DNA of 55,409 nucleotides, the filler included, from Jimgerdemannia flammicorona (lineage: Eukaryota): the NCBI GenBank assembly GCA_003990765.1. It is 3 parts of 3 records of this genome, joined end to end, with 100 filler letters (N's around TTAATTAATTAA, not from the genome) between each part and the next. Parts side by side here need not be neighbours in the genome. Positions count along the whole stretch, not along the records: positions 18,510 to 36,918 come from RBNJ01002219.1; 2 more parts are not named here. The stretch is one strand, 5' to 3'. The notes beneath the pieces were generated by a model. That model had not been told where the DNA came from. It made no database searches and saw nothing but the letters and a program-made list of their open reading frames with translations. Below are positions 1,350 to 55,207 of the stretch, piece by piece. The position numbers were made by a program, and so were the translations under genes. Every line of letters begins with the position of its first letter. The stretch's first letter is position 1.

Positions 1350-1637
1350 GTTTGTGTGTTTGAAAGTTGTAGTTGTTGTTTGTTTTGGTTCTCTGATTCG
1401 ATGCATCTCGGTGCTTGGTATATATGCATTTGGTCCTGATTGGTAAGATTCCGTTTGTGTAAATCTTGTGTTCCATGACTTCGTATTGACTCAGCTTTGT
1501 GTGCTGTGACTTCAGTTTGACTCAGCTTTGTGATCGAGCAGGTGATTTCCAGGTTTGTTCAGAGGTCATGTGTGATTTCAGTGGCTTGTTCAGAGGGTGA
1601 CATGTAATTTCAGTAGCTTGGAGGTTGTGCGCTTACA
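611..1637 (-). repeat. 3' LTR of Gypsy A (U3 part; broken at 611 by retroposon R1)
   Basis: Near-identical to 9193-10219, differing mostly by transitions. Starts TGTAAGCGC on the minus strand directly after the PPT. Confidence 0.95.
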
Positions 1638-10219: not shown

Positions 10220-10919
10220 GAAATAATAGAAGTCTTTAATATTATCTATCATCCTTAGTTAGTAAAAGTTCTGAGTTATATTAGTAAGAGTTTTTTCATA
10301 ACCATAATATTTTATAAAAGGTATATCATAGTATTCTTATATAATCTGAAGTCTCAGTTTCTGATTTTCAGAGATTAAGACTCTTGTTTCATTATAGTAT
10401 AGTAATTTTTCTTTGAGGGTTAACTTCTTAATCAGTTCTTTAAGTCTTGAATTATTGATTGGATTTTGTAAAAATTTACAAATTTCTTAGTGAGTTAGAT
10501 TATAAACTTCTCTAATCTGATTCTTGAGATTATTAGTTATAATTGTAATAGCTATTATTTATTCTATTTATTTTATTCTTAAGAGAGCATTGGCTACTAT
10601 ATTTGATTCTCTAGGGTGATATTCTACTATTAAGTCATAATCTACTAAGACTTCTATCCATCTTACTTATCTTTTAGTCAAAGTAGATTGATAGTAAATA
10701 TAGATAAGAGATTGATAATCTATAATAACAAGAGAATGTTTTTCTATTAAGAAGTATCTTTATTCTTTAAGACTTCTAACTATAGCAAATAATTCCTTTT
10801 TATAGATAGTATATTTTATTTCTACTTCTTTTAACTTTTGAGAAAAATAGCTACTGAATATTTTTCTTAAGTAAGAACTGCTCTAATTGTATCAGTAATA
10901 ACTTCAAAGAAGCCTTTTG
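10220..10919 (-). mobile_element. Old AT-rich Gypsy pol relic (RNase H to integrase zinc finger); host of Gypsy A and solo LTR A
   Basis: Minus-strand translation includes RWIEVLVDYDLIVEYHPRESNIVANAL and YGYEKTLTNITQNFY. Continues across the solo LTR into 14168. Confidence 0.8.
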
Positions 10920-11207
10920 TGTAAGCACACAACCTCCAAGCCACTGAAATTATACATCACCCTCTAAACAAGCCACTGAAATTACACATGACCTCTGAAC
11001 AAATCTGGAAATCACCTGCTTGATCATGAAGCTGAGTCAAACCAAAGTCATAGCATACAAAGCTGAGTCAATATGAAGTCACAGAACACAATATTTATAT
11101 AAATAGAATCTTACCAATCAGAACCAAATGCATATATACCAAACACCAAGATGCGTCGAATCAGAGAACCAAAACAAACAACAACCACAACTTCCAAACA
11201 CACAAAC

Positions 11208-12304
11208 ATGACCACCAAGATCTATACCCATATCTGCACTGACATTTGGAATACCATTGTCAACAGAGCCATACTCCCTCTGCCCCTTATGAATATCCAT
11301 AGCCTAGCACCCTTCTACTTTGTGGAAGCCTGATGGAATGCTCTGAACATGCTTAGCAAGGCCCACCGAATCAGACAAATCTCAAGCTACTACCAGATCG
11401 GCCACCTTCTAGAAGATATGATTGAACACCACCACGATACAGACATTACCCAGATGTCTCAACACCAGAAGCTCATTGCCCACAAACATCGAGAACTCTT
11501 CTATGAGTATAGCACTGTTATTCCCTACCTCCAAGTTACCATAGCTGAAATGGTTGCTACTCTGTCCTATGGCCAAATCGATGACATGATATAAGAACTC
11601 AACCACAAGTACCTTGAGTATGTCGAAACCACAGATAGAACCTTCTCACACCCCAATGATCATATCCTGCAAATACCCCAAGTTGGATATACTATAAAGG
11701 ATATCTATAATATAATCTACTTCGATGAAGATAAAGCAGAAGACAATGATCCCTCTAATGCCAACATGACCTCTAGCCAAGGATTTCTGCCAACTCTGAT
11801 CATACCGCCAATCTTGCCAATGAACTTACAATAATTTATAACAGCATACAAGACTTATTGGAACAATGACCACTGGCATAAATACCAACCCGCCTTTATC
11901 TCTGATTACTTCAACTACAATGAAGAGACTGGAGAACACAACCTGTACCTCCAGACAACCCTCGAGATTGAACCAACCACTCCACTACCCGAGTATGAGC
12001 AATATGAACATGGCCACCAGCTTACTACAACCCTATGACTCATAGTGCTGTAACCTACAGAAGGTATGCAGACAGTGAATCTGATGAAAGTGAAGATGAT
12101 GCACCCCTCCTTTGCCCACCAATACCTTATTCAGTATATGAGACAGATGATGCCATCTTATGGGATGGAGATGAAGTTCCAATATATTATTATCTTAATG
12201 AACAAGGAGAAGTAATCCATGAACCACTCTTCCTAGATGACTACTTCATCAGAGATAATGCAATTAATGGTGATGTTATTGAAGACTACCCAGACAGTAC
12301 CTAA
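11208..12304 (+). pseudogene. Third copy of the LTR(U3) accessory ORF
   Basis: ORF fragments 11151-11333, 11349-11594 and 12035-12304 match the other copies. Several C>T stops and a 1-nt deletion near 12008. Confidence 0.85.
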
Positions 12305-12441
12305 ACCTATAAATAGTCTAGCAGTCATAGTATAGTTAGATTAGCCTTGTACTACATGACTGCATTCCAACTCAGCAAGGCACTTAGTGCTACATCCATA
12401 TTTAGTATAGTCCAGATAGCCCCTCACTAGTATAAATACCC

Positions 12442-12446
<5 letters not shown>

Positions 12447-12514
<68 letters not shown>

Positions 12515-13686
12515 TTTTACAGACTCATGTCCCGCGGATTTTTATTAGAAGGGAACCTAGACTATATAGGCCAAAACCCTCCCCCACCACCCACCAAGCA
12601 CTGCCCCCTCATTAACCTAGGCTAGCTATTGTCCAGCAGCTTGACCATACCAGGTGCAGCAGGGCTAATAAGCCCACACCTCATTCTGCACACCATGCTC
12701 TCCCTACCACCAGGGGAAACCCAACTATATGCCAACGACCAAAAGCACATGCCTGAGAACCCAACGTATGTATAAGGCTATACCCGAGCTGAATAGAATA
12801 GTCCCTGCCACCCCAAAGAGAATGACAGGTAAATAAAAAACCCTCATCAAAGCACAACATGGTGGGTAGGGCCTGGTTCTCCCAGTCGAGGTGAGTAAAG
12901 GACTTACATATGAGGTAGGAGGAAACCCCCAATACCCCACTACTCAAGCCTGTGGGCCTCGATCACATTGCCATGTCAGCTCCCAGTTCCAGTTGAGTGC
13001 AGCCAAGATGCCTGAAATGGGTAGCCTTGGGCCTCCTGACCCCTCCTGATGACTGGGGCCCAACCCTACTGACCGCCAAAAGAAGCCGATAGTGACACCT
13101 ACCACCTAACCACGCTGCACCAATCAAAAGACCCCACCAAAGCAGCACCTGCCCCAGCCCCGATGACTGCCCCCAGCCTAGCACCCTACTGGTTCACTGT
13201 AATCACCCTTCCACCTATCTGTGATGGCCATCTCCCCTCCCATCCCGACAACACCCAAAAAGCAGTCACCTATGCCAGAACTGTGCTTGCCAGGAAGCTC
13301 GCCAAAGCCAAAGGGCCCCACTACAGGTACTGAGAACCTGCAGGTAACCTATACTGAGCACTTGACGCCCAAGGTCGGCCGACTCCCTATGTAGCCCGAG
13401 ACACACCAAGACAACTCCTTGTTGGCGACGGCAAAAGGAAGAAGGCACTGCACCAAAATGAGTATACCCCAGATGCAGCTAAAGGTACCAGAATCCGCGA
13501 AAAAGTGAAGGAAGCACTGATCCGACACTGATAAAGGGGCAACTCATCACTATTGCCCTCCTCCCACCATGCCCCTGTAGGCACAGCAAACCAACCCGAG
13601 GTAGAGGGGATAATATTAGGAGAAAGGGGACTTGGAAGGTCGCCTACCAAACCTTGTGACCAGTAAGGTAGCGGAGAAAGGAGTCG
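12447..13686 (-). mobile_element. Retroposon R1, complete copy (~1.17 kb plus poly(A))
   Basis: 18-bp TSD AGTATAAATACCCCCTCT at 12429-12446 and 13687-13704. Poly(T) on plus at 12447-12513. AATAAA about 25-30 nt before the tail. No recognisable coding domain. Confidence 0.9.
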
Positions 13687-14167
13687 AGTATAAATACCCC
13701 CTCTCCCAGACCTCAGAATCCTAGACTTGAGTATACAAGAACATTCCTGAATACTTCCCCACAATATCCCTTCATATAACTACTCCTAGTATAGCAATAG
13801 CATGAATAGCAAATAAACCTATTTGATAACCCACAAACCACTCTTAAGTAAATCCACTCCCTGTTAGGTCCCACTCCTAACCCCATCATGAAATTTCCTA
13901 ATTGGGTATTGTCTGCAGTGATATACCAATTCAACTAAGCTGGTCTTAGTTTCTTGAACTTCCTGAAATATGGAAAATCCTGAACATCCAGAACTAGTCC
14001 CAAAAAAGGACTTTGGTTGAGATGTCAACCTGATCTTGAAATCAATAAGCATAGAGGATATACTCTATATAAAATTGATCTTGACCATAAGAAAACGGTC
14101 TTCCAGAATTTCCAGAAAACCTTTCCAGAACTATGTAATGGTTACCCTAAAAAGCAACCCTCTTATA

Positions 14168-14616
14168 TTTTGGATCAAAGATCACCGGTATTGGTACATT
14201 AGTGAGAAGTCTTTTTAGATAATTAAAGGCTTGAGTTTGAATAGAAGTCTAATGTTTTTTAACATCCATAGATTTTTGAGTCAGTATTGTTAAAGAGACT
14301 GCTACTCTAGAGAATCCTTCTATAAATTATCTAAAGAAGTTGACCAATCCTAAGAATTCTTATAATCCTTTAAGGTTTTCTAATTGGGACCAATCTTCTA
14401 TGGGTTTAATTAGTCTGGGAGACATTTTGGCTGTTTCTTTTCCAATAATATGTCCAAGGTATTCTACTTTTTCTTGTAAGAAGTGATATTTTTCAAGCTT
14501 CAGATATAACTGATTTTTTCTCAGTATAGTGAAGATTTCTCTCAGATGTTAAAGGTGGTCCTTTTGAGTTGTACTATAGATGAGAATGTCATCTATATAA
14601 ACTAGTACACACTTGA
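14168..14616 (-). mobile_element. Old Gypsy pol relic (RT C-terminal half)
   Basis: Minus strand reads CVLVYIDDILIYSTTQKDHL...LKLEKYHFLQEKVEYLGHII. Confidence 0.85.
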
Positions 14617-15290: not shown

Positions 15291-16079
15291 CGTGTTAGAG
15301 AGGGGAGGTGTTTACGTTTTTGTTGAGTTCCCGTTTGCAACAAGTGCTTTGCTCTTTTGCAAGTTGCACTACTGCCAATGGCTATAAATATTGTTGTGAA
15401 TGTAAACTGGAGCGTCAAGATGTTGAATCTCTGATGCATTTTGTTCTTTCTTTTCCGGCCATTCGTTTATTTGCTTGGGTTACACGTTTCGTACGCCGTC
15501 ATGCCCAAAAACGTTCGCATAAAGAACACGGAATCGGACCCTGTTGGATCGTGGATCGTGGATATTGACAGCTGCGCATGCCAGTTTTTTTTTTTTTTTT
15601 TTTTTTCGGGGATATGTGAATGGGTTGAACCCCGTCAATAGGACGCACTGGTTATGAGCTGCGCATGTTGGTCTGGGTCTTTTAAGGGGACGTGAGGTGC
15701 GATGAAGCTGTAGTTCAACGGTTGATCAATAGACAGCGCGAAAGGGGGGCGTGTGAGCGAATGACATGTCCGGTGTAATGGCATTCTCAACTCGAACCAG
15801 ATTGACTCGAATCTACTCGTTTGAAGCACCATTAGAAACTGGGATTTTGCATATGCATGCACACCAGAGATGGCACCGCCTGATATGGGCAGTACCAAGT
15901 ATCGGCAACAAAGGAGCTCGGCAACAAAGAGACTCATCGCTGGAATATAGATCATTTGGCCCGAGATTGAGACCCATACCATTTTTACCCATACAACCTC
16001 TCCATACAACTTCCATCCATACGACTTCTACCCATGCTTTCGATGCGTTTGGGATTCTTCCACTCACCTCGGTTTCAAA

Positions 16080-17470
16080 ATGTCGGTCCCGCTTACGGCT
16101 TCGGGGTCACAGGTCGCCCTCTATCCCAAGGATACCGCCACCAAGGTACCCATCCTCAGTGCGCACCCTAACAATTATAAGTCAAATGCGATTGTGTCGC
16201 CAGCAGCTAATATGTTATGCAATACCATCTCAAGCATTAATTCCTGCAACAAAGCTTGCTGCTTCGAATGTCAAAGTCTCTAGCGTCACTTTCGAATGGA
16301 AACTTGACGCTTTCAACAAATTGGCGCCAAAGAAGTACGTGAGCGAACTCTTTTGGACGAGTGAAAGACATCCGTGGCGGTTGGCGTTCTATCCGGTAAA
16401 GTGCCGCTAGTTTTAATTGAATTAGTGGATGGCTAATAAATTGATTGGTTTAACCACTCTAATTAAGTGTGTATTTTAACAGTATGGCAACGCTAAAAGA
16501 AACACATATGATAATATGTCATTCTATTAGGAAAGTTCATATAATGACACTTTCCAGCAAGTCTATTTCAAAAGAAAAGACGTCGCGCTCGACTTATTTG
16601 CTCGCGTTGGAGAGGTTGAAGCACATCACTTTGCGAGGTGCCTTACCTTTGACGAAAAGAACATTAGTTGGGGTATGTTTCTGCTCATGCTCATGCTCAT
16701 TTTACTCCGTTTCCCGCAACACATTTCCCATGCTGGTCGATTCACCTTTCTTGTGGTTCCAAGGATCTAGCCAATTCCAACTTCGAAAAAAGCTGGTTGA
16801 CGCGCTCAAGACCGACGAGGACCCCATCTTGTTGAAAGCAGTCATCCAAATACCGAACGTTGAAATGTTAGTCCTGGCTCCAAACCCCTACTCCAAAGCC
16901 GCCACCGCCACTTTTCTTCAGAACTGTCAACACCGCGACGTCATCTTTCACGTCGACGGAAGGATTATGTACGCCCACGGAGGCCTCCTCGCCGCCCACA
17001 GCAAACACTTTGCTGCTCTGCTCAACGACAGCAAGGAAACTGCTCACAGTATCCCCACTGAAAAAGCGATTATTACCGTCACAGACGATAACCACGAAGC
17101 CTTCCTCTTGATGCTAAGGTATCTGTACACGGGCTCTTTGGACTTTCGCGGATGCCCCGAGGTCAAGGTAGTGGATCTATTCAAAGTTGCTGATAAATAC
17201 GATGTGTGGGCCTTGAGAGATGCGATGGAGGACTGCATCAATAACCTCACAGTTGGGAGCGTCGTCCCATTGCTCTTTGAGTTCGCATACAGTTACGCGC
17301 CCCTGCGCAAGGGGTATTTAAATTTCATTGGCAACAACTTCGAGGCCGTCAGGAAGACAGGCGCTTTCAACAAGTTAGAGAGGAATCCCTGTGGCTGGGA
17401 AGTTTACTCCGAGCTGATGAGGGAAATTGTTGAATGTGTCCCGACCAGAGATGCGGAAATGGAAAGCTGA
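16080..17470 (+). pseudogene. MATH-BTB/POZ (SPOP-like) gene with a premature TAG
   Basis: MATH motifs TFEWKLDAF, WRLAFYP-YGN, MSFY*E, WGSSQF. BTB motifs DVIFHVDG..YAH..LLAAHSKHF, FLLMLRYLYTG, ADKY. GT-AG introns 16396-16482 and 16673-16763; first intron uncertain. TAG at 16528-16530. Confidence 0.8.
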
Positions 17471-18409: not shown

Positions 18410-18509
18410 NNNNNNNNNNNNNNNNNNNNNNNNNNNNNNNNNNNNNNNNNNNNTTAATTAATTAANNNNNNNNNNNNNNNNNNNNNNNNNNNNNNNNNNN
18501 NNNNNNNNN
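18410..18509. other. Assembly gap / artificial contig linker
   Basis: 44 N + TTAATTAATTAA + 44 N; the 12-mer has stops in all six frames. Confidence 0.97.
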
Positions 18510-20770
18510 AAAAAAAAAAAGGAATTGAGATCATCTTTACCATTCAAATAAAGAGACTCTTCTGCAAAAAAGGAAACACCTACTTCATCTGTACTATACA
18601 AGAAGTCACCAAAGCCCTGAGTAGCCCAATTCTATCAGAAGCTCAAGAATTATTTGAGGAATTTCAAGATATATTTCAGAAATCCAAAGGACTTCCACCC
18701 AAGTACCAAATCCAATATGGAATTAATCTCATTCCAGGATCTAAACCTCTATATAAGAGTATCTATCAACTGGTCCAATCTGAACTCAAGATCCTTGAGA
18801 ATGAGTTGACCAAACTATTGGCCCAAGGATATATTGAATCTAGCTGCTCTTTATTTAGAGCCTCTATTCTATTTATCAAGAAGAAGGATAGCTCTATGCA
18901 AATGTGCATTGACTATAGAGCTCTCAACAAGATCACTATTAAGAACTGATATATCTTATCTAGAATTGATGAGTTGTTATACCAGATCTAAGGCCAAGAC
19001 CTTTTCTTTACTGAACTTATGAAATAGTTACCACCAGATCCTCATTGATGAGAAGGACATTGAGAAGATAGCTTTCCAAATACAGTTTGAACACTACTAG
19101 TTCCAAGTCATGCTCTTTGATTTAACTAATATACTAGTAACATTCTAGTATCTGATGAATAACATCTTTAGACCATTGCTTAACATTTGTATTCTTGTGA
19201 TATACTAATCTACAGCACAACAGTAAAGCTATACTATACCTACCTCAGGCAGATACTGATCCTTCTATAAGAACACCAGCCTTATGCTAAGATGAGTAAG
19301 TACAAGTTCTATTAAGACCAGATTGAGTATCTAGAACATATTATCTCTACTGAAAGAATTAACATAAACCTCTGAAATATATCAGCTCTCAAGAATATTT
19401 ACATTTCTACTCCTCTCAAGCTACTTTAGTGCTTCTTGGATATTGCTAGTTACTACTGAAGATTCATTCAAAGATACTCTGCTATTATATCCCCACTGAT
19501 CAGCCTAGCCTACAAAGGAGTAAATATCAAAACTGAATAGACCCCCAAGTATACCCAGGCTATAGACTACCTTAAGAGGCTCCTTACTGAGGCCCCAGTA
19601 CTAATTGTATCTAACTTTACCAGATTATTTACTCTGATCACAGATGCCTCTGATATTGCTATTGAGACAGTACTCAGCCAAGAATATCACCCAGTGGTCT
19701 ATCTCTCCCAAAAGCTCAAGCCAGCTGAGATCTAGTATATTATCTATGAGAAAAAACTTCTGGCCATTATCACTGCACTCTAGGAATAGCACTATTTTCT
19801 CCTAGAACAACTATTTATAGCCTATATATATTACCATACTCTGTAGTACATTTACATACAGCTCATGCTGATCTACAGACAAGCCTGCTGGATGGAAATT
19901 ATTACCAACTTTAAAATAGAAATCACATATATCTCAGATAAAACCAACTGTGTGGCTGATGGTTTCTCCAGATATATAGAAGATGAACTTGTCTTCATAG
20001 TTGAGATAATTGAAGACCTCACTCAGATGATCAAGAATGACTACTAACAGAATAGTCCTCTGGTGAAATTCCTTCAATTCTGCCAAGACCCAGAGGCTAA
20101 GGTCCCAGGACTCATGAGACAAATGTTCAAAAGATTCACTTACTATGATAGACTTATCTACAAAGACTATAATAGAGTAGTTATATCTAATAATAATACT
20201 CTATAGCTCAAGATCATACAGGAACTCTATGATACTTCTGCAGCAAGATATTTTAGCTTTAAGAAGACCTACAATCTCCTCTCAAGAGAGTTCTACAGAC
20301 CAAAGATGACCAAGAATATCAAAGATTTCATGGCCTCATAGGAGATATATTAAAGATTTAAAAGTAGTAATAAACTACCAGCAGGACTTCTGCAACCCCT
20401 GCCTATCCTAAGTTACAACTAGGATCAGATTGCAATAGACTTCATTGTCCAGCTCTCCAAGACTAAGGCAGAATAGGATACTATTATAGTATTTATAGAC
20501 TGCCTAAGCAAACAAGCCCATTTTGCACTCACTAAGACTACTGTCACAGTACCAGAGATTACTGAGATCTTCTTCAATCAAGTATTCAGTCTATATAGTA
20601 TATCTAGCACCATTGTATCTAACTGAGATGCCAAGTTTACAAGCAACTTCTGGAAGACATTCTTCCCCTTCCATGAGACCAAGCTGAAGTTCTCTACTAT
20701 CTACTACCTCCAGACTGATGGTCAGACTGAGCAAATCAACAGGACTCTCAAGCAGATACTTAGCATCTTC

Positions 20771-20772
<2 letters not shown>

Positions 20773-20805
<33 letters not shown>

Positions 20806-22101
20806 TTTTTTTTTTTTTTTTTTTTCTATAGGCTGTAGTCTCATTTATTAACTATCTATAATATGTCACTTATCCTTATACAATATCAGTAGCCCCATTC
20901 TCAATCTCAACCTACCTTCACACTCACCCAGTCTTACATCTTTAGAGTATGAGTTGTAACCTTACTACTTGAGTAACTAAATCCTTCTATCTAGCCTGCC
21001 CCACCCAGTGGGTATGGGTTGTGAGTCCCAACTACCTCAAGTACTTGGCATCTAGTGTATCTGACCTACTTCTATTAGTACCTTCTGTCTTGTCCATCTA
21101 GCCTATCTTACCTATCTTATCTGCCTATGTTGCCTATATTGTCTATATTGCTATCTTACCATCTTGCCTATCTTGCCTATCTTGCCCATCTTGCCCATCT
21201 TGCCCACCTGTATTGCCTGTATTACTCATGTTGCCCATGTTGTCCATATTTCCTATATTGCCCATATTGCCTATTTTGCCCATTTTGTCTATTTTGCCCA
21301 TCTTGCCTATATTACCTGTCTTGTCATCTGCCTGTCTTGCCCATATTGCCCATGTTGCTATCTTGTCTGTCTTGCCCATCTTGTCTATCTTGCCCACCAA
21401 TATTGTCCATATTGCCTATATTGTCTATGTTACCCATATTTCCTATATTGCCTGTATTGCTCATATTGCCTGCTATGTTATCTATATTATCCATATTGCC
21501 TATATTGCCTGTATTGCCTATATTATCTGTATTATCTACCTATATTGCCTGTGTTATCTGTGTTGCCCATTTTATCCATTTTACCCATTTTGCTCATCTT
21601 GCCCATATTGCCTATCTTACTATCTATCTATCTTGCCTATATTACCCATCTTGCTGTCTTGCCATCTTACCCATCTTGCCTGTCTTGCCCATCTTGCCTA
21701 TCTTACCTATCTTGTCTGTCTTGCCCATATCACTCATCTTGTTATCTTGCCATTTTGCCCATCTTACCTATCTTGCCTATCTTATCCATCTTACCTATCT
21801 TGCCCACCTGTATTACCCATGTTACTTATGTTGCCCATGTTGCCCATATTGCCCATATTGCCCATATTGCCCATTTTGCCCATTTTGCCCATATCACCAC
21901 CTGTCTTACTATCTACCTGTCTTGCCTATATCACCTGTCTTGCTATCTTGTCATCTTACTTGTCTGGCCCATCTTGCCCATCTTGCTTATCTTGTCTGCC
22001 CATGTTGCCCATGTTGCCCATATTGCCTATATTGCCTATGTTGCCCATATTGCCTGTAGCCTACCAAACTATTATGACTGATAAGGTAGTAGAGAAAGGG
22101 G
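20773..22101 (-). mobile_element. Non-autonomous poly(A) retroposon R2 carrying a 9-bp minisatellite, inserted in the Gypsy B integrase
   Basis: ~15-bp TSD TACTTAG(C/T)ATCTTCT at 20757-20771 and 22102-22116. Poly(T) on plus at 20773-20824 with AATAAA upstream on minus. 5' head matches R1. Confidence 0.85.
21085..22056. repeat. Degenerate 9-bp tandem repeat (TTGCCYATN), about 100 units
   Basis: Units such as ttgcccata, ttgcctata, ttgcccatc and ttgcccatg; produces the low-complexity ORFs at 21127-22139. Confidence 0.95.
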
Positions 22102-23429
22102 TACTTAGTATCTTCTGCTATTACAAGCAGAATAATTGAGACAAGTACTTAGCCTATACCAAGTTTATCTATAATAATAGCCAGCAAACCTCTATAAAGA
22201 AGACTCTATTCTTCCTAAACCATGGTTAACATCCAAGAACCCCAAGCATTACTTAAAATTAGTAGTTCCAATAGCCTAAGATTTGGCTGAGACTATTTCT
22301 GATCTTATGCAAATGACAAGAGATACTCTTATAGAAGTACAGGACTATCAGACCAAGTATGTGAACTTGAAGTGAAGAGAAGTCTTCTATAATATTGGTA
22401 ATATAGTTATACTTAGAACAGACCATCTTACTCTGGTATAGCAATCAGCCAAGAAACTCTATGCTAAAAGAATTAGACTATATAAGATTATGAAAAAAGT
22501 CAGCAGAGTCAACTATAAGTTAGAACTCTCCTATAATATTCAAGTATATCCAGTATTCCATATCAGCCAATTGGTAGACTACTATGAGAACATATTCTCT
22601 AAGTATATAGTTCCACCACTACTCCCAATTAGGATCAATGATGATGAGGAATTTGAAATCAAGAAAATACTTAACCACAAGATCCACAAACATACCAAAA
22701 CAGTCAAGTAGTTTTCCTCATCAAGTGAAAGAGTTATCCCATCTATGATGCTATCTGGGAAAAAGAAGAAGCTCTAGAGAATGCATATAAAGCCCTTCAG
22801 GACTATATGGAAATACTTACTCCTCAGCAGAGGAAGGAACTATAGCTCTAAAACTTAGAACACATAGTAAAGAAAGAAGATACAATATATTTAGCTAGAA
22901 TATACAATACTGAATATTACAAAAAAAGAAATACTATAGTTAATCAACAATAGGATACTCAGGTGAAGAACAACCCAGCAAGGTATAGCAAAATATATTT
23001 GAATAACTCTGTTTCATACTATTTATATCATCTCTGCTAGAGAGTGACAGATGCTTCATATAGAACTTAAGAAAGCTGACAATGTTAAATCCAATCTCAG
23101 CCCATCTATATGATAGATATTGTTACTAGGAATTACCTCAGATTACAAAAAATATTATTTTTGAGAGATTTGAACTCCCAGCTATAACAATAAGAGCCCT
23201 TGCCCTAGATAAGAATGGCCAGTTCTCACAAATGCATAATAAGATAAAAAAAAAGAGAACCAAGATCTGTTAACTGTATATAACTATAATCATAATATAG
23301 TAATATCTCAGGTGACCAGCATATACTCTGCTTAGAGTAATAAGTTATATATTCTATCAGAAAAGGTAATTGAATTAAAGTCACACCAAATAGGTGAATA
23401 AGTATAAATATCTAGAGCAAGAATATACT

Positions 23430-24298
23430 GCAACCCTCATCTCTCTCTCTAAAGAAAAGATAAGACAAGAATATCTGCTACTTACTGCCAAATAGTCTGC
23501 TATAGCCAGCTCCTTTCAAGTCAGATTGACTGCCTTTTCAGACACATTCAGATTTCTATTTAAGGAAGAAACTGCTACTTAGAGACCCTTAACCTCTCTA
23601 GCTAGAACTTAGAACAGTATGTCCTTGACTGCTGTAAACTTATAGAAAGGACCTATCTTGCTACCAGCTACCTAGAAATCTGGTATGAATACAAAATTGG
23701 TCATCAACTTCTTTAACATGCAAATGATCTACTCACTGATCAGGTCTCAGACTAGACCAACCTAAATAGGTATAAGTAAAGACTAGCCAAGAAGGTCTAT
23801 CAAATTATATGCCATATACTCTTTGCAATCTCCAATCTCAACTATATATAACTAAAGGACTTTTAAAACCTTTTCTTCCCTAAGGTTGATGAACTGGAAA
23901 TCAAGATTGCCTAAGAAGTCAACTTTTAGATTACTCTCAAATCCACTAACTACAAACCCCACTAGAGCTCCCTCTTGAATAATAACTCAGACCAATGGCT
24001 CTAAGGCCTCTCTGATCTCTTCGAAAGATTGCCCATTCAAATGGATATCCTCAGACATAAGGATCAAGAACTCTACTTAGATGGTCCCAACTATATTAGA
24101 TAGAGAACTCCTATCCCACTACCTATACCAGTTTAAGAACTATTTATAGATCTCATTAACTTCTCTATCCTAGATACCAAGTCATCAGCAACTATCTCTC
24201 CAACCACTGGTGGGGATAGTAATAACACTGAGAAGGATTCCCCACCTTTCTCTCCCCTCATTCTCAATTTCCAAATCAATAAGAATGTTGATTTTTAA
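23430..24298 (+). pseudogene. Extra ORF of Gypsy B between pol and PPT, homologous to the LTR-A accessory protein
   Basis: One frame 23606-24298: NLEQYVLDCCKLIERTYLATSYLEIWYEYKIGHQLL*...RLAKKVYQII...ISNL...NLFFPKVDEL. All stops are TAA/TAG, consistent with transitions. TATAAATA at ~23403. Start not resolved. Confidence 0.7.
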
Positions 24299-24309
24299 GG
24301 AGAGAAGAA

Positions 24310-25072
24310 TATAATAGAATGAGTGAACAGATGAGACATAATATATGATGAGTGATTATGTGACCCAGTAATGATGTCACCATAAATTGAGTATAACATA
24401 TGATATATAAATATAATAAATAATATGAATAATGTGAAAAATAATATCCAGCTTATTCTCAACAATTAGTACTACAGTAACAAGTACTGCAGTAACTCTA
24501 ATCATTGTCTAACAATTGAGGTCCTGATAATAAAGTATATTTGATTACAAACCACCTGATAAAAGTTGTGATTACAAATCTCACTATAGTTATCAAATTA
24601 GTTACTTATACTTAGTCAGAAATTACAGATCAACTTATATAAATACTCCTCAGTTTCTATCTAAAATAAAGTAGTTTTAGTTCAGTCCTTGATACAAGAA
24701 TCAAGTCTCTCTCTACATATATACATTCTCCTGAGTCTTAGTAATGACATCTAACTGACTCTAATATTTCTGACTAAACTTCAGAAGCCTAGCTAACTTC
24801 TACCAGAACTAAGACTAGTATATAAATTACAAAGACTTAAGTAAATCCATTGAACCTGAATTCCAAGGTGAATTCAGTCTATATATAGTAAAGAACAAGT
24901 CTCTTACAACTAAGGTTGATAAGAAGGATACTGCTACTATAACTACTTTCAAGTAAGTACTTTCTTAAACTGAAGACTTCTTGATATATATTGTGTATCA
25001 AGTCTCTAAGTAATATCTTGTTTCTCTAATTATCCAAAGAATAAGAGAGGGATAGAAATAAGAGTTATTACA
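24310..25072 (+). repeat. 3' LTR of Gypsy B
   Basis: Follows the PPT. TATAATA (decayed TGTAATA)...TATTACA. Inverted homologue at 25949-26721. Confidence 0.88.
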
Positions 25073-26776
25073 ATATTATAGAGGCCTGGCTGGCCATGGG
25101 ATTAGCAGAGCTAGAGATGAGTAAGAGTGAGGATTTAAAGCAAAGATGGTGGCAATTAGAAGACCTTTAAGTTGGTGGCCACTAGTTGGCAGTATACTTT
25201 CTGTCTGAGACAATAGAATGGATCAGGTCTGGCCCCCTTGAGAGATAGTCAGTAGGTTGGCAGAAGACTGGATTTAGTGAAGACTAGGAATAAGGACAGG
25301 TCTGGAGCTAGGGGACTTCCTTGCTTAAGATTGTAATGCCTAAGTATTGAGTAGTATGGTGGTGATTCTTGAGGAGAAATGTGATACTAGGTTACTGGAT
25401 AAGATAGATAGAGGTAGAAGGTAGTCAGAAATATAAATAGTGTAGTGAGGTAGATAGAGGGGTGATTAGACACCAGAGTATATCCTGGCAGTCTGTCCTG
25501 GTGTAGAGGGGTATTAATAGATATTGGAGGATTATTAGAGCTCTGAGAGTAGATAGACAGGAGATTCCACTAGTCTGGTAGTCAAACTGTAGCTAGTGGA
25601 AGAGACTGGTAATATTTAGGGTAGTCTGGGTTGAGTTCTGAGAGTCTGGATCCTGATGGCAGTACATTGGTAATGGGTGTTTGAGTAGGATTTATAGATA
25701 GAAATTAGTTAATTGATTGAGCAGTGGAGGTGACTTCTCCAGAAAGTAGTGTAAGAGTGGTAGTATCAGAGGAAGTAATATCAGCTGAGAGCTATGAGGA
25801 AGATACAGGACATTGTACAGAGGAGCCAAGGTCATCTGGTACTGGATGGTCAGAGGGTTCAGTAGAAGGAGAGTATTGGCTAATAGATCTTTTATTTGTA
25901 TATTATCATTATAGCCATTAATATATAGGGTTTGTTATTGTATTAGATTGTAATAACTCTTATTTCTATCCCTCTCTTGTCCTTTTGATACTTAGGGAAA
26001 TAAGGTATTACTTAGGGACTTAATATACAATATATACCAAGAAGTCTTCAGTTTGAAGAAGTGCTCACGAAAGTAGTTATAGTAGTATCCTTCTATCAAT
26101 CTTGGTTATAAGGGACTTGTTCTTTGCTGTGTACAGACTGAATTTGCCTTGGAATTCAAGTTCAATGGGTTTACTTAAGTCTTTTGTGATTTATATACTA
26201 GTCTCAGTTTGGGCAGAAGTTAACTAGGCTTCTAGAGTTTAGTCAGAAATACTAGAGTCACTTAGATGTCATTACTAAGACTCAGGGAAATGTGTGTGTG
26301 TGGAGGGAGACTTGATTCTTGTATCAAGGACTGAACTAAAACTGCTTTATTTCAGATAGAAACTGAGGAGTATTTATACAAGTTGATCTGTGATTTCTGA
26401 CTAAGTATAAGGGACTAATTTGGTAACTATAGTGAGGTTTGTGATTGCAACTTTTGTCAGGTGGTTTGTAGCAAAAAACACTTTGTGATTAGGACCTCAA
26501 TTGCTAGGCAATTATCAGCATTGCTAGGCAATTATCAGCATTGCTGTGGTGCTGGTTGCTGTAGTGCCGATTGCTGGGGATAAGCTGGATATCGTTTATT
26601 CGCATCGTTCGTATCGTTCGTATCGTTCGTTACGTTCATATATCGTATGTCGCGCTCGATCGTGACGTCATCGCCGGGTCACGTGATCTCTCGTCGCGTC
26701 TCATCTGTTCGCTCTATTACATAGATATTCTTAGGTAATAAAGGAGTCCAAGTAACTATAAAAAAAAAAAAAAAAA
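25073..26776 (+). mobile_element. Decayed LINE 3' end (ORF2 C-terminus, 3' UTR, poly(A)), interrupted by solo LTR B
   Basis: MPKY*VVWW*FLRRNV and TPEYILAVCPGVEGY match LINE ORF2 at 36270-36460. Tail ggtaataaaggagtccaagtaactat(A)n matches 36887-36918. Confidence 0.75.
25949..26721 (-). mobile_element. Solo LTR of family B
   Basis: TGTAATA...TATTACA termini. 5-bp TSD TAGAT at 25944-25948 and 26722-26726. Confidence 0.92.
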
Positions 26777-28577: not shown

Positions 28578-30732
28578 TCATTCAATTTTTGTTGACTGCA
28601 GCAATTCATGAGTCGACAAGCACCGAGGTCGTTGACTAGGTATCCCTTCAGAACTTCCCAGTGGTGTTTCGGTGAGGCGTTTTTTGGGCAGAGAGGACAA
28701 ATCGCTAGCGATAGACGTGAATTGTTTATGCCAGTATTCATAATCTGGGATCGCGGCAATGTCGAGATCGTAGACGTAGCGAAAAAACTCCTCGAATACA
28801 TGCGGAAGACTGTCAAAGAGACAGAGGATATTAGAAATTTCTTCTTTTTCATGCAAGGCCTTGAACGGGTCTTGAGCAGCGGCGCGCCAATATTCCTTGT
28901 TCCGATTGTGCATGAAAGCGACGGTATAACAAAGTGCCTCTAGGTCGTCTCCAGCCCCAAGATATTTGCCCCGATTGTGAGATGAGTAAATGATATGGCC
29001 CATTGGCCAGTCGATAGGAGCAGCGTCTCTCTTGTCGCATCGCGGAACCGCAAGGCCAAAATCGATCAATTGGAATTTGTCTCCGACTTTCATGATGTTG
29101 CCGGGGTTGATGTCATTGTGGATGTAGTGGTGGTCATGAAGGTCTTTCAGAACTTCGAGGATGCCGATTATAATGTTGCAGGCAATCGGTGCATCAATCT
29201 TAGTGACTTTTCGGCCGACCATGCTAGTGACAATGTAGGGGGTCACACCATCGAAGTCTTTGTGTAGCAACCTCGGAATGCCCTTGACCTCGTTGAGTTT
29301 CTTCAATGTTTCCGCTTCACGTCGCAGAGGATCATGATGGAAGCTGTACTTGATGGCGACTTGTACATTGTCCGTAGTGAGTCCTTCGAAGACTACGGTA
29401 TCTGACCCGGTGCCCAAAGGTCGACGCGCTTCTATGTCGCCAATATTGGTTGTCACAATCGGAAGGCGCGATGGAGTAAGCTTTTTTGCCCATTTCACGA
29501 CCATGTCATACAAAATCTTGTCTCTGACGCAAGGATCCAAAAAAAAGTCTGGTGGACGAGTGACTGGGTTCATTGCTGAAATATCTTTGCTTGCACCAAG
29601 GTTCCCAAAATCTCCAGGAGAAGCATTGGCACGAAAAATGTTAGCTTTTTTGAAAGTCTTGAAAACACGCCCTAGGATCTCCACGGTGTTCGGACTCCAG
29701 TCATAATCCTGTGTCAGACCGCCTTCCATCTCTTGACCACAATGTGCATACCACAACCTGTACTTCCTGGCATCGGTGATGATTGATACGTATTTGCTAC
29801 TGCGGTTCAAATCATTTTCGAAGTATTTGACAGAATACCCATGGCACTGGACAAGCGCAGTGCTCAAATGGGTGGGCTGCCAGGATGGTTTGTCCTCGAA
29901 TGCCCAGCATTTTGTGAAGTCGATGCTGGAACATTCAACGTTGCAGGAATGACTCCATTCTGTATGCGTAAGATAGTGATCTGCGAAATTTTCATCATAC
30001 TGACCGCCATGCCGGTTATCCCAGTTCACAGTCAGTTGAAAAATTTTAGCCAATTTCTCGCACATGCCCTGGACCCATGGTTGCACTTCCTCAATTTCCT
30101 TTCTCCATGCAGAATGGGGTCTCGCTATTTCGTTGTAGATTTTTCTGACCTGGCGGGTTTCCCTGTTGGTCAGCACTTCCAGAAATGAGAGATCCGACTT
30201 GAGGAATCGAAAATTTCTATGATCTTTAATGCGATTGGCAATGACGGACGTCGACCTTGAGGTGAAAAGATTTTCGAACGCGGTAGAAACCGCTAAAGAA
30301 TATGAGATCGATAGATGGATAAGCAGATGGATCGAGCAACACTTGCACATATGGGGAAAAGTACAATCATTACGCACGGGTGGGTGGTTGGACGATGATA
30401 TGAATGTGCATATCAAATGGTTGAGTGTTAAAGTAGTATGAGATACGCCGCGCCGCCAGTAACTTTGTGCCGTTCAGATAATTCTCGACATCGATGTTGA
30501 TAGCGGTGACATTGTCCTTCAAAGCTGTGAACTTATCATTAGGCACGTCGAGAGGGATGTCGACTTTCCAGAGATCGATCATGTCTGCTTCGGTTTGGGC
30601 AAACGTTAAAAACTTCTTTCCCTTGATTGCTTCCTTGAGATCGCTAGCGAGCAGATTCTTGTCAATTGTGATTGTGAAGGTTTGGTCGGGATCCCCACCG
30701 AGGACGAGACAGTTGAGTTTGATGTCAGTCAT
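28578..30732 (-). CDS. Crinkler (CRN)-type protein: CRN ubiquitin-like N-domain, putative REase-fold domain, Ser/Thr kinase; 689 aa
   Basis: Exon 1 30378-30732 (IKLNCLVLG, LKEAIK, LWKV, HIHIIVQPP). 85-nt intron GTGCGT..TTAG at 30293-30377. Exon 2 28578-30292 has D..FEDK..IITDA, LGTGS, VAIK, HNDINPGN, DFG, DDLEAL. Spliced length 2070 nt, in frame. Confidence 0.9.
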
Positions 30733-31568: not shown

Positions 31569-34500
31569 CCTGGCAGATGGTGTAATGGGACTGGCGGTGG
31601 CGCCATTACTCAAGAAGTCGATCTCGGCATTTGCAGTCATGCTGTGCCACTGGGGCTTAGCAGTGACGACAAAAATGGTGTTGGGGCTTATCACTAAGCA
31701 GGTGGCAGGAGTGGCTTTAGTGAAGTTTCTGAAGGGACTGGAGGGGATGGAGGTGGGATTTGAGGAGGTTGAACCACTAGAGGAGGCACTGAAGGTTGAG
31801 TTAGTGTTTGGGGAGGTGTGTGTTCCGATAGCGAGGTATTTGAAATGAGATCTGAGGGTGGTCCAACTGCTGGTAAAAGGAGTACCTATGGTGATGGCGA
31901 TGGAGATGAGGAAGAGAGTGGAGGATGTCATGGTGGAGTATAGAGAGGTGGTGGATATCAGATTCAGGGTCTGGGAAGGGACCACGCTCAGGACTGGGGA
32001 TGTAGATGTGAGGATTCGGCTAGCTGGGAAAGAGGCTACCAGGAAGATGAGAGACTGGCCTTTGGTGTTAGTCTGGGGAGCTTTTCTGTGCAAGGTGATG
32101 CAGGTGAAAGGAAGTGAAGAGGAGGAAGATTTATTGGAAGCGCTGGAGGAGCTGGATGGGACTGTGGAACAGCGAGCTAAGGCCTAGAAGACTTTCAAGG
32201 AGTCAATGCACCTGGAGGTGGTGGATGGAAAGAGGATTCGAGTGGACAAGGTGCAGTGGGAAAGGGCTCAGGGATGGAAGAGGCAGAAGGATCTGCTGGC
32301 TAAACTGAGGGGTGGACCACAGAAGGATGTGAGCATGAAGACAGGTGCAGAAGGGGCCAGAGTGAGTATCTGGGCTGGTGAGAGGAGTGGGAACAATGGG
32401 GCAAAGTCAGGGAAGGCTAAGGAGGTGAAGATTAGCGACCTATATGCTGACGGCACCTTGGAGGTTTGGGAGGAAGTCTGGGAGAATTCCCCCACCCCTT
32501 CCCCTCTTATCAGGTATGGCCCAGCTTCCAGGAACAAGTCTGGGGAGGATGTGACGATGCTGGGGACCCAGCAGGTGAAATTTAGCATTCCGGATGTATT
32601 GGATAGAGACTGAGTAGTGGCGGCAGGGGAGGAGGAACTAGTGGATGTCCCAGAGGTGTAGGATGAGGATGCAAGTGCAGGAGCTGACACCATAATGCTG
32701 GATGGAGAGAGGCTGGTGACCCCTGGTGGAAAGGAGGTGGGGAACCTACTTTGGATATGCTGGATGATGAATAACCTGGCAGAGAAGAGCTGGGGAAGGT
32801 GGACTTGCGGGGGATGAGTGACGAGTACTGGACGAGAATTTTGCAGGGGGAAGGAGTGGCAATGGCACTGAAGGCGGAAATTCTTACGGTGTATCTGGAG
32901 GAGGAAGGGTATGAGGTGGATAAGGAGAGGGAGGCAGAGTTGGCGGTGGTCGCTGGGGAGAAGACTGAGTACTGTTGGAACAGGCATCATGGGTTGCAGC
33001 TTTGACAGGAGGCTTGCATCGAGTACTGAGAGGAGTTTGAGGAGAAGGCTGATGAGGAGATGAATGAGCTATTGGCTGGACTGGAGGCTCAGAGGGCTGA
33101 AGAGGAGGAGGTGATGGCTGAATGTAATCTGGACATGGCACAGGAGGAGAGGGACATGGAGCAGTAGGGATTGATTGAGAACAAACCATATTTTACTATG
33201 AACAGTACAACCAACATTTTTTCTTTGAACATGAATGGGCTGAGGGGCATGGTTCAACACAGGAACATTTTTATTTGGTTAAAGGGATTGGAGGCCAATC
33301 TCTTTCTCTTGCAGGATGTCAGGTATAAGGATGATGCTGATAGGTTAGAATAGACTAAGGAATGGGGTGGTATGGTGATTTGGAATAGCAAGGTCAGAAT
33401 TCTGGTTCGGAAAGGCAGAGGGGAGATAAAGGATGTGAGGAGCTGGGAGAAGAGACTGGTCTGGGGTGAGTGGATTCATGCAGGTTGGGAGCCAGTCACA
33501 GTTGGCTCCTATTACTGCCCTGCTGTGCGGGGGGAGCATGTGGATTAGATGAAAGGGCTTCCAGAGAGTGGGATCCTTGCTGAAGCTGGGTTGGATATAC
33601 TTGGAGGAGATTTCAATATAGTTTGGGATGTATGGCTGGATAGAACTGATGGAGGACAGGGTGCGGAGAGCAGGAGTGGGGGGTTAGCAATGTGGGAGGA
33701 GGTTGAAAGGCTAGGAGCACTGGTGGATGCTGGTAGGGAGCACTGGGGGGACAGGAAGATATATACGCATTGGGCTGGAGGTCTGGGGACAAGGATTGAC
33801 TGGATTCTGATGGCCGACTGTTGGGGCCATGATGTTTGGAAGGTGATAGAGGTAGAATGGTGTCCGTGGTCAGATCACTGGGGCCTCTTGGGACAGGGGT
33901 GTTTTGGGGGAAGTAGAGATGGGCCTGGACATTGGTGCCTAAATTCCTCCTTGTTGGATGATGAGGCCTGGTGAGAGGAGTGGGTGAAAGACATTCAGCT
34001 GAAGGTGGCAAATTGGCAGTAGGAAGGGGTCGCGATTGGGGTTTGGTGGAAGAGGATGAAAGAGATGGCCAGGATGTATTGGAGTGAGGCTGGCAGAGTG
34101 GCTGAGAAGCAGCGAAGGCAGAAAGTGCATTGGGCTTCTACTAGATTGGCTAGGCTCCTGGAGGAGTGGGTGAGACTGGCAGCAGTGGAGGGAGAAGAGG
34201 ATTGGAGAATAATGAGGGTGAGGATGGAGGTTGGGAAACTGCAACAGGTGCTGCGGGAAGAGAAAGAGTCAAGGGTGCAAGGCCTGGTGGCACGGCTTCA
34301 TTGGCAGGGGCTGGAGGAAGGGGAGAGGCCTTCCAAGTTTCTCACAAGGACACTTTGAGTGAGAAGGGTACAGCAGCGGTGGGAAGGGGTACTTGACTCG
34401 GATGATGTACTAGTGCATGGTATACAGGACATCCTTGAAACACTGAAGGCGTGATGGAGTGGATTGTGGAGTGAGGAGGAGGGTGGGGTGGATGCTACAG

Positions 34501-36918
34501 CCATTGACCAAACATTAGAAGATTGGCACCCACCACAAGCTGAGGGACTAAGTGATCTGATGATACCTGTAAAGGAGGACGAGATCCACCAGGTTCTTGC
34601 CACGACAGCCTTGGGTATGGCATCTGGGGAGGATGGCCTCCCCTAGGACTTCTGGAAGCAAATGGTTAGAGTCCCAGGTATATTGGGGGAGTTGACAGCA
34701 CTGTGTGACTCTATATTGCAGTCAGGGAGATGAGTGGGGGAGCAAGACCTTGGGCTGGTGATGCTGCTTTATAAGAACAAGAGAAGGCAAGAGGATTGGA
34801 TGAACTGGCAGCCGATAATGTTGCTAGATATGGACAGGAAGTTGGTGACTAAGGTGGTGGTTGCAAGGCTACAGAAGGTAACCCAGCAAATTGTGGGGGT
34901 TGAGCAGAGGGGCTTCATAGGGGGTCAGCTTATTAGAGATGGCACAGCCTAGGTACATGGAGTTATTGAAGGTGCTTGAGCCTGTAGACTAGATGGGCAT
35001 CTTGTCTTCTTGGATCAGGAGAAGGCTTATGACTGGGTACAGCGAGTCTGGCTGGCGAAAGTATTAGATAGAATTAGAGTTCTGGGCCCATTTTGGTCTG
35101 TAATGGTCAGCCTACTGGAAAGGAGTAGGGCTGTGCTCATGTACAATGGGCATCAAGGGGTGGCTTTCTCTCTGGGTAGGGGAGTGCCCCAGGGGGACCC
35201 ACTGTTCCCCATTTTGTATACTCTTTCCTTGGAACCTATAATGGATAGGATTCGGCAGAAGATCATGGGGCTCTCTATCTATGGCATTGGCTGAAGGTTG
35301 GAGCCTTTGTGGATGATATGGTGGTTGGTTTGGGAGTGACTGCAGATGTCAAGGAGCTCTGGAAGACAGTAGAGTGGTATGAGGAGAACTCTGGAGTGAA
35401 GCTGAATTGGCACAAGTATGAAACAATGGTGCTGGACAATGGCTTGGTGGGCAGAGAAGTTATTGGAACAATTGTCCCCACTGGAGAGGCAGTGTGGTAC
35501 TTGGACATCTATTTGTCAGTCTATGGGTCTGTTTTGCCCAGGCTGTGGTGGGAGCAGAGGATTGGCATTTGGGAGGAGGACCTGCAGGGTTGGGAGGGTA
35601 GACACTCCTCTCTGGCAGGAAGAATCTCGATTTTGAATGTATACTGGCTGCCGAAGCTATGGTATTTAGCCTATCATCTGGACTTCCCAGCCTGGGTAGT
35701 GAAGAGATTGGTGAAGGTGGCCAAGGGATGGATTTGGGCTGGCAGATAGAGTCAGATTGGTTGGGAGACTTTGTCCCTACTGGTGGCAAGAGGTGGTCTT
35801 GGGCTGGTGGACTTCCCCAAAAGACTACACTGCTTGAGGGCTTGGTGGCTGAGGAGGGCGGTGGAGTTGTATGGAGGGGGCTGGGTCCCCCTGCTGCAGA
35901 AGATATGGGAGAGGCGGACATCGTCTAGAGGCTTGACTGGTGATCTTCTTTCATTAGTTGGGCTTCAGAACACTGTGCAACTGAGATATAAAGGCTTCTG
36001 GTGGGGGATAGCCGAAGGGGCACACTGCATTGGTATTCGCTGGCAAGGGGATGAGGGGGAGAGAGCTTGGGGCCCGGTGATGTGGAGATGGGATAGCATT
36101 CTTCTGGGAGGTATACCTTTACTGGAGTTTAACATTAGTGATGACATCGAATGCCAAAGGGGTCCAGGCCAGGATCTGTGGCCTAGTGATTGGCAAGGAG
36201 TTGGAATTGGTGAGGAGTTGGACTGGCATGGGGTTTGGACCTAGAGTGCCACAGTGAAAAATTGGATGCCGCCGAAGTACTGGGTAGTCTGGTGGCATGT
36301 GCTGAGGAGGAATGTGATGCTTAACTTCTGCTCAGGACACCTTATTGTAGGGGACTGCTTTGACTGTGAGGAGTGCCATAATGTAGGGCAGGAAGGGGGA
36401 TTGGTACAGATGCCGGAACATTGGCTAGGGGAGTGTGAGGTGTTGGGAGACTTTTGGCAGGCTATTGGAGACCGCTTGGGGGTAAGGCATAGGGGTGATG
36501 ATGTACGGGAGAGGTGGGAGGACCTGAGGAATAGATTGATAGGAGGGGTAGGAGAAGAGTGGATTACTCTAGGCTGGGCATTGGCTATTTGGGTTGGGCT
36601 GGCTGGACACTGGCTATTTGTATTTGAGGAAGAGAAGCGACAGAGCTTGGGAAGCTGGTTAGCAAGGTGGCAGTTCCTTATGGAGGATACCTTGACAGGC
36701 TGGTGGCTTGGTTGGGGGCTGCAGGGGGGTTGGAGGTGCTACTTGGTGATGAAAATCTGTGGTCAGAGTGGTGGAAGAGTTGGAGTTATTGGTGAGAGGG
36801 TGGTCTTTATATATGAAGAGGTGGGGTGAGGCCCCCCGATGGGGATTGGATAGTAGGTGGTGATATTGTATACTTATTCATAGACTGGTAATAAAGATGG
36901 AGTCCAAGGAACTATAAA
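31569..36918 (+). mobile_element. L1/Tx1-type LINE, probably 5'-truncated, decayed (ORF1 remnant, ORF2, 3' UTR with AATAAA running into the gap)
   Basis: G-rich sense strand. APE and RT motifs in ORF2. Many CGA>TGA and TGG>TAG type stops. Confidence 0.92.
33198..36829 (+). pseudogene. LINE ORF2 (APE endonuclease, RT, C-terminal CCHC)
   Basis: SLNMNGL, LLQD, GGDFN, RIDW, SDH; SGEDGLP, QRGF, DQEKAYD, GVPQGDPL, AFVDD; CEEC...EHWLGEC. Confidence 0.93.
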
Positions 36919-37018
36919 NNNNNNNNNNNNNNNNNNNNNNNNNNNNNNNNNNNNNNNNNNNNTTAATTAATTAANNNNNNNNNNNNNNNNNNNNNNNNNN
37001 NNNNNNNNNNNNNNNNNN
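36919..37018. other. Assembly gap / artificial contig linker
   Basis: Same 100-bp N-TTAATTAATTAA-N linker. Confidence 0.97.
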
Positions 37019-40129: not shown

Positions 40130-40477
40130 GTCGCATGGATTGCTGGGTAATCTGTGTCTCTAATACAGCGGGTTTCATTGTGCGAGGTGAAGGGGGACAC
40201 GCCCCTGCAAGGCCCACACCACGTGGAACCTTGCTGTGGAACGTTCGTGGACCCGAAAAAACAAAAAACAAAAACAAAAAAAAACACTTGTTACGCTTCT
40301 GCACGTTGATCACATCATCTTTCTACACGCGAACAGAAAGACAGACGTTTTGGATATTGTGTCGAACACCACCGCTACCGCCGTTCCCCAACGAGTAATG
40401 AGTTCTACGATTCTCACTTTCATGTGCTATCGTTTGTTATTTGTGACTCAACAATATATTTATATTTGATATTTTGT

Positions 40478-40548
<71 letters not shown>

Positions 40549-55205: not shown

Positions 55206-55207
<2 letters not shown>

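Follow-up and report, generated by a model that had tools for sequence, protein, structure and literature searches.

Most descriptions of genes beyond gag and pol in long terminal repeat (LTR) retrotransposons come from plants and animals, and for the majority of these genes no function is known. In retroviruses, accessory genes may lie in or overlap the unique 3' (U3) region of the LTR, as do sag of mouse mammary tumour virus (MMTV), nef of lentiviruses, and bel/tas of foamy viruses, the last with an internal promoter. The present analysis concerns an extra gene of this general kind in a stretch of 55,409 nucleotides from Jimgerdemannia flammicorona (assembly GCA_003990765.1), which is referred to below as the window and along which all positions are counted. 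The window contains the remains of two Ty3/Gypsy elements, A and B. Element A holds an open reading frame (ORF) in the U3 region of its LTRs, and element B has a decayed frame directly before its polypurine tract (PPT). It is likely that this decayed frame (23462-24298) is a dead copy of a chromovirus third gene, placed in sense between pol and the PPT and homologous to the U3 ORF of element A.

Several described systems can be compared with this locus. Additional ORFs (aORFs) in sense orientation, located after pol and before the 3' LTR, are treated in a review on plants (PMC7264820), and a figure legend on chromovirus structures marks an 'additional ORF with unknown function' in fungal elements and in one spikemoss element (PMC2864245). 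The aORF-3S of plants and insects and the fungal chromovirus 'add. ORF' resemble the present gene in their sense position, their conservation within a family and their unassigned function. However, the described sense aORFs are mostly Env-like, whereas the protein of A and B has no membrane segment. In bdelloid rotifers, ORF3 types are common to diverse retroelements and constitute a modular 3' region (PMC5408684); the likeness here is that the same extra gene occurs in distinct retroelement lineages. The rotifer ORF3s described there can be recognised as coding for enzymes or envelope proteins (GDSL esterase, DEDDy exonuclease, paramyxovirus-type fusion protein), whereas the A/B protein matches no known family. 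A further comparison is provided by CERV of the Caenorhabditis elegans Ty3/Gypsy element Cer1, which PMC10309623 presents as a novel accessory protein beside Gag and Pol that is required for genomic RNA export. CERV illustrates that accessory proteins of Ty3/Gypsy elements can be regulators and no envelopes. It is made from a spliced mRNA, and the A/B gene is compared with it by description only. A literature search returned no paper on the A/B protein family and no retrotransposon gene whose location differs between lineages, inside the LTR or ahead of the PPT, although absence from such a search is no proof.

The third gene of element B and its intact relatives

Comparison with open relatives confirms that a real protein-coding gene underlies the frame of element B, which is a mutated and dead copy of it. 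A phmmer search with the stop-containing read-through, run against 1,835,955,588 representative proteins, gave three matches: P0006 (7.6e-57, 48% identity), P0007 (4.8e-36) and P0008 (4.6e-19). Each of them is an open reading frame that covers nearly the whole frame of B, and all are unnamed metagenome proteins, falling into three clusters at 50% identity that hold one or two members each. The outside relatives of B are 42-49% identical to P0014, and at this level of divergence the frame remains open in L001, P0007 and P0008/P0010, with flanking DNA for L001 alone. L001, a metagenome contig of 1535 bp, was the one relative obtained from 175 pattern matches in a scan of metagenome contigs, and it carries an intact ORF of 291 codons at 376-1251. 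The same kind of scan gave 136 matches in viral contigs and 103 in prokaryote genome contigs, none of which was confirmed. A word-index protein search with the B alignment recovered P0007 alone among 1569 candidates and missed the known members P0006 and P0008.

The gene has the position of a sense additional ORF, on the coding strand between the end of pol (near 22842) and the PPT with its 3' LTR, and the order of features in L001 is the same as in element B. In L001, the ATG is preceded at a distance of 80 nt by TATAAAAG (296-303); the stop codon immediately precedes the purine tract GGAGGGAGGA, which is followed by the LTR-like TTGTAATAAG, and the start of the B LTR aligns with the latter. 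The two copies also share their final residues (...DF, stop). Over 835 aligned bases they are 61% identical, which amounts to approximately 39% DNA divergence and 326 differences. The start codon of the B copy has been lost, with AAG standing opposite the ATG of L001. The frame from 23402 to 24298 contains 16 stops in 299 codons, comprising two before the start, 13 internal ones and the natural stop, and six of the 13 internal stops are found opposite Gln or Trp codons of L001. Stop counts do not pick out the coding frame, as the +1 frame has 12 stops in 298 codons. The motifs quoted in a previous sequence-only reading of the window are present in this frame, and the features described there around it also hold: the TATA-like TATAAATA upstream, an acidic tail (with the net charge given below) and a B LTR of about 770 bp. 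That reading had further expected intact copies of B to carry an ORF at this position, which is the case for L001.

The manner of decay can be read from the base composition. Among the differences from L001, 143 of 326 are C>T or G>A in the B copy, compared with 45 in the reverse direction. Within element B (18512-25080), 0-1 CpG dinucleotides are observed where 64-70 are expected, pol alone having 0 against 70. The number is reduced in element A (97 observed, 289 expected) and in the non-LTR element at 33500-36800 (34 observed, 184 expected), and it is at expectation in the host-like genes at 15766-17470 and 28578-30473 (89 of 94 and 101 of 103, respectively). Because CpG is erased in B, reduced in the other elements and normal in host-like genes, the C-to-T hypermutation appears to be specific to transposons, and the pattern indicates that element B decayed through it.

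By its domains, element B falls among the chromoviruses (Ty3/Gypsy). Its pol product P0003 matches RT_RNaseH_2 (1.2e-20), RT_RNaseH (1.8e-16) and Integrase_H2C2 (9.1e-8) in Pfam; RT_RNaseH_2, Integrase_H2C2 and SH3_Tf2-1 exceed their cut-offs, and the match to Chromo (PF00385) in the frameshifted remnant, with E=3.2e-4 and 21 bits, lies below the cut-off of 25.1 bits. The accessory frame has the same orientation as pol, and its original frames are obscured by decay, so that a read-through product extending Pol at its C-terminus, with no separate gene, might seem natural. Such an extension is scarcely conceivable, however, given the 619-nt spacer between chromodomain and ORF, in which each of the six frames of 22871-23401 contains 11-16 stops per approximately 176 codons. 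In addition, the frame of L001 (325-1251) extends no more than 51 nt beyond its ATG on the upstream side, the outside gene calls P0006 and P0007 begin at the aligned Met, and a TATA box is retained before the ORF. The spacer of B aligns poorly with that of L001 (55% identity over 276 aligned bases).

Probable relationship to the gene within the LTR of element A

Judged by its coding content, element A is a chromovirus carrying dUTPase, the domain (PF00692, E 3.4e-33) being encoded at 5380-6177 on the minus strand, directly upstream of the aspartic protease. The pol genes of A and B are 33-35% identical, which supports their assignment to distinct Gypsy lineages. The accessory ORF of A begins 231 nt inside the 5' LTR and stops 190 nt upstream of the main TATAAATA, and it therefore lies wholly within U3. 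Its translation, P0011, shares 67% identity with P0005 and 88% with P0015, two outside proteins that confirm a native LTR-A protein of 384 residues. The protein is present in three copies, at 462-1406 (-), 8837-9988 (-) and 11151-12301 (+).

The accessory gene of B is very likely a distant homologue of this ORF. The case is carried by comparisons of family profiles. When an alignment of A (5 rows) was compared with one of B (6 rows) in hhalign, one co-linear match was obtained, with P 1.9e-4 and a probability of 47%, over 128 columns (A 24-152 to B 22-152), at a similar offset from the N-terminus. Further runs gave P 1.1e-4 with 56%, and P 2.4e-4 with 43% when the L001 protein was used as the first row. 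The real score of 39.6 was not reached in any of 195 column shuffles of B (mean 15.2, sd 2.6, maximum 27.1), and reversed profiles scored 14.3 and 15.6. The profile-profile comparison, which had been named beforehand as a way of checking the by-eye alignment, is thus significant.

An independent route was provided by a hidden Markov model (HMM) built from outside B proteins only and run with hmmsearch over 738 six-frame tiles of the window. The ranking begins with three B tiles, followed by precisely those six that span the N-terminal domain in the three copies of A, with E-values of 3.6e-4 to 0.071 and scores of 15.4 to 7.8 bits. A tile with E=10 and 0.8 bits comes next, and none of the other 729 tiles exceeds that bit score. 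The same model matches the outside A fragment P0015 with E 2.6e-4 and introduces the 3-residue gap seen in the earlier by-eye alignment. In the reverse search, with a model of A, the proteins P0007, P0006 and P0014 lead after the A-derived tiles. A MAFFT alignment of nine sequences reproduces the register and aligns the tail motif F-T-P-x-x-hydrophobic-N-F/Y in both families. The claim that one accessory gene is common to two distinct chromoviruses is accordingly upheld at the level of profiles. A relation of the accessory gene to gag was also considered and was rejected, no HMM match to gag tiles being found.

A number of observations count against this account of the locus. The best BLASTP match between the two window proteins covers 7 residues at E 2.0, tblastx between the A and B window frames gives no match, and the Smith-Waterman score of 32 is lower than the shuffle mean of 34.0, being reached by 329 of 500 shuffles; with the longer A copies the scores rise to 46 and 45, which 19 and 22 of 500 shuffles reach. 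The hhalign probabilities do not exceed 43-56%, and the profiles are shallow, with effective numbers of sequences (Neff) of 1.4 and 2.1-2.2. In the reverse direction the matches of the A model to B proteins are weak (E 0.08-0.19). The AlphaFold2 models are poor, with a mean predicted local distance difference test (pLDDT) value of 43.6 for B and 35.7 for A; consequently, the folds are not comparable, and the predicted helix order alone agrees. L001 is the single outside copy with DNA context, and its 1535 bp do not include pol. None of six comparisons in which non-coding sequences of the two elements were paired (LTR core, spacers and upstream regions) rises above shuffles, and any assignment of function draws on composition and analogy only.

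The non-significant pairwise tests, the hhalign probability of about 50%, the weak A-to-B model matches and the folds that cannot be compared would all be expected if the ORF of B were real and conserved, yet unrelated to the ORF in LTR-A, with the profile match arising between two helical and compositionally alike proteins. Chance resemblance of this kind is quite unlikely. Column shuffles that keep composition, together with reversed profiles, stay at or below 27.1, compared with 39.6 for the real pair, and the separation of the six A tiles from the other 729 in bit score is clear-cut. Moreover, the match is co-linear, has the same offset, is repeated when outside sequences only are used, and is reproduced by MAFFT. 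Homology of the two genes, if accepted, also shows that a by-eye alignment which fails all pairwise tests can prove real once family profiles are available.

The protein, the two layouts and a possible role

The B-type proteins have approximately 250-340 residues, and in them a mainly helical N-terminal domain (about 190 residues) is followed by a strongly acidic tail. In three B-family proteins and in P0011 the first 160 residues are close to neutral, and the C-terminal parts of five members (three B, two A) have net charges from -16 to -39. The tail contains repeated short motifs of hydrophobic and acidic residues. In five family proteins the maximum Kyte-Doolittle hydropathy over 19 residues is 0.59-0.97, and no hydrophobic or membrane segment is found in them by this measure. 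Pfam offers nothing credible for the accessory proteins, and PDB sequence profiles give no match at E up to 10. By these properties the protein is predicted to be soluble and is no envelope protein, despite its env position. A third gene of the Env-like type, as in errantiviruses or Athila, was therefore rejected, given the missing hydrophobic segment and the lack of a Pfam or PDB match. The term 'env-like' used in the sequence-only reading remains appropriate for the position between pol and the PPT and does not apply to the protein itself. In the ESM Atlas the best scores are 0.86 for A and, for B, 0.92 to an unnamed cluster, both of which are leads only. The sequence-only reading had also likened the motif to a helical domain common among hypothetical proteins of Glomeromycotina; this suggested link comes down to one Atlas cluster with a score of 0.89 and recorded taxa that are mostly Mucoromycota, and it is an unverifiable lead.

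This lead to a cluster of hypothetical proteins, the tiny size of the family in public protein sets and the fact that no full-length outside element was seen are what might be expected of a host gene transduced by one element lineage and carried as a passenger without a role in the life cycle. Such an origin is very improbable. The B copy and L001, despite their divergence in DNA, keep the same position, with the stop flush with the PPT; the relatives at 42-49% identity stay open; a homologue is present in a second lineage whose pol is just 33-35% identical; and no cellular family is matched in Pfam or PDB. What emerges is a previously unnamed protein family conserved across chromovirus lineages with pol sequences about one-third identical, and its retention across such lineages argues that the gene serves the element.

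If the third genes of A and B are homologous, their arrangement in the two elements can be described in common terms. In both families the gene would be found towards the 3' end of the genomic RNA and ahead of the LTR's main TATA box. The layouts would then differ solely in the site of the plus-strand primer, that is, the PPT, which sets the left edge of U3: it would follow the gene in B and precede it in A. Because the position of the gene is common to A and B, one relocation of the PPT/LTR edge would explain both layouts. The anatomy of A fits a moved boundary, in either direction, absorption of the gene into U3 in A, as proposed in the sequence-only reading, being one of the two; in the absence of non-coding similarity between A and B, nothing indicates which layout is older. 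The gene would probably give rise to a separate short mRNA that starts from the preceding TATA box and ends at the polyadenylation site of the LTR, and the layouts of A and B would yield the same mRNA. In element B, TATAAATA at 23403-23410 is a candidate for this promoter.

Each layout has a retroviral counterpart. MMTV sag and nef resemble the layout of A, having coding sequence inside U3, at the 3' end of the genomic RNA, that is duplicated with the LTR. The internal promoter of foamy viruses resembles the layout of B, where a TATA box of its own stands before a 3' accessory gene, and an acidic C-terminal part is a further likeness. Differences remain, in that A and B are chromoviruses, their proteins have no similarity to any solved protein, and the roles of promoter and activator are putative. 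Elements A and B may nonetheless be regarded as a natural pair of layouts, internal and inside the LTR, which suggests that a shift of the plus-strand primer site can bring a gene into U3, an arrangement found in a few retroviruses. LTRs, solo LTRs included, might consequently encode protein.

With regard to function, a regulator or adaptor of the retroviral accessory type could tentatively be considered, though the odds are somewhat against it; it might be a transactivator, a helper in RNA handling or RNA export, or an adaptor to a host factor. In such a protein, nucleic acid or proteins of the element would be bound by the helical domain, and the acidic tail would serve to attract a host factor. 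Among transactivator-like features, those seen are the conserved TATA box and the acidic tail only. A more far-reaching proposal, which is unlikely, is that the family constitutes a trans-acting regulator carried by chromoviruses either as an internal third gene or within U3. If this were true, each LTR in the U3 layout would hold the gene together with a promoter-like stretch before it and the end signals of the LTR behind it, and the solo LTRs left after deletion of an element would be stand-alone expression units. LTR debris could in that case keep supplying an activator, an RNA-export helper or a silencing antagonist to the remaining active copies.

Coordinates and surroundings of the two elements

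The window consists of three pieces of approximately 18.4 kb each, joined by linkers (N44-TTAATTAATTAA-N44) at 18410-18509 and 36919-37018. Element A is located in piece 1 and element B in piece 2, and their adjacency is therefore not shown. For the same reason, the break of element B within reverse transcriptase (RT) is the edge of a piece and no biological cut. The coordinates of the features are collected in Table 1.

Table 1. Features of elements A and B and of their surroundings in the window.
Feature	Position	Strand	Evidence or remark
3' LTR of A	611-1637	-	PPT at 1658-1639 before LTR; cut at 611 by another repeat
Primer-binding-site-like TGGTAGCAGCAG after 5' LTR of A	8152-8141	-	
5' LTR of A, 2064 bp, TGTAAG (10219) to CTTACA (8156)	8156-10219	-	
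Main TATAAATA of 5' LTR of A	8644-8637	-	
Accessory ORF of family A in U3 of 5' LTR, 384 codons + stop, 4 internal stops	8834-9988	-	P0011
Third A-type LTR, with insertion of ~1.3 kb	10916-14173	+	
Accessory ORF of third A-type LTR, 3 stops and one frameshift	11151-12301	+	
Pol of B: RT (partial), RNase H, integrase	18512-20731	+	Pfam; 5' side cut by linker
C-terminus of B integrase (SH3_Tf2-1) and frameshifted chromodomain remnant	22061-22842	+	PF24626, 3e-13
Spacer from pol to accessory ORF of B, 619 nt	22843-23461	+	Stop-rich in all frames
TATAAATA, candidate internal promoter of B accessory gene	23403-23410	+	59 nt upstream of start-equivalent codon
Decayed accessory ORF of B, 278 codons + stop	23462-24298	+	phmmer, alignments; TAA at 24296-24298
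PPT of B, AAGGAGAGAAGAA, overlapping ORF stop codon	24297-24309	+	Sequence; L001 counterpart GGAGGGAGGA
3' LTR of B, 771 bp, termini TATAATA...TATTATA	24310-25080	+	Self-BLAST; composition shifts sharply at 25081
Second B-type LTR, inverted, apparently solo	25941-26732	-	Self-BLAST
Stop-free frame of 631 codons, protein-kinase domain	28578-30473	-	Weak Pkinase_fungal match
Non-LTR retrotransposon remnant, CpG-poor	33500-36800	+	RT-like frames

The three LTR copies of A differ in their state of preservation. The sole stop-free copy of the ORF is the one at 462-1406, with 314 codons; because the 3' LTR is cut by the other repeat, this frame is chimeric after approximately residue 265, and its last 50 or so residues are non-native. 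The repeat that cuts the 3' LTR (15-598) recurs in the third LTR copy (13101-13683), in the opposite orientation relative to the LTR. In every LTR copy of A, the ORF is preceded by a pair of TGAGTCA motifs with a spacing of 31 bp and by a TATATA (10001-10106 (-), 1487-1524 and 11033-11070), and over the whole window TGAGTCA shows no enrichment (13 observed, 10 expected). In the 5' LTR the TATATA (10006-10001) lies 13-18 nt before the first ATG and about 70 nt before the second in-frame ATG, at which the outside gene call P0015 begins. In view of this spacing and of the start of P0015, the real start of the A ORF may be the second Met. The TGGTAGCAGCAG that follows the 5' LTR is presumably a site matching the initiator tRNA. 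Word-index protein searches gave one match among 321 candidates for P0001 and two among 1830 for the A alignment. With respect to the dUTPase of A, such a domain is known in some basidiomycete and Tuber Gypsy elements, as noted in PMC2864245.

The two LTRs of family B are 79.6% identical in a self-BLAST (24305-25080 against 26732-25941). Among all 738 tiles of the HMM scan, none beside the inverted LTR matched the B ORF. A second internal region of B type next to this LTR was also considered and rejected, the neighbourhood being occupied by the kinase-like ORF and the non-LTR element. The genes on the window have a fungal look, to which the kinase-like ORF and a BTB protein contribute. The pol of element B carries 29 stops in 740 codons, and its integrase gene is split by poly-T and approximately 1 kb of degenerate 9-nt tandem repeats at about 20730-22100. 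Blocks of poly-T and simple repeats similar to those in B are also found at about 12400-12630, 40420-40610 and 55140-55390.

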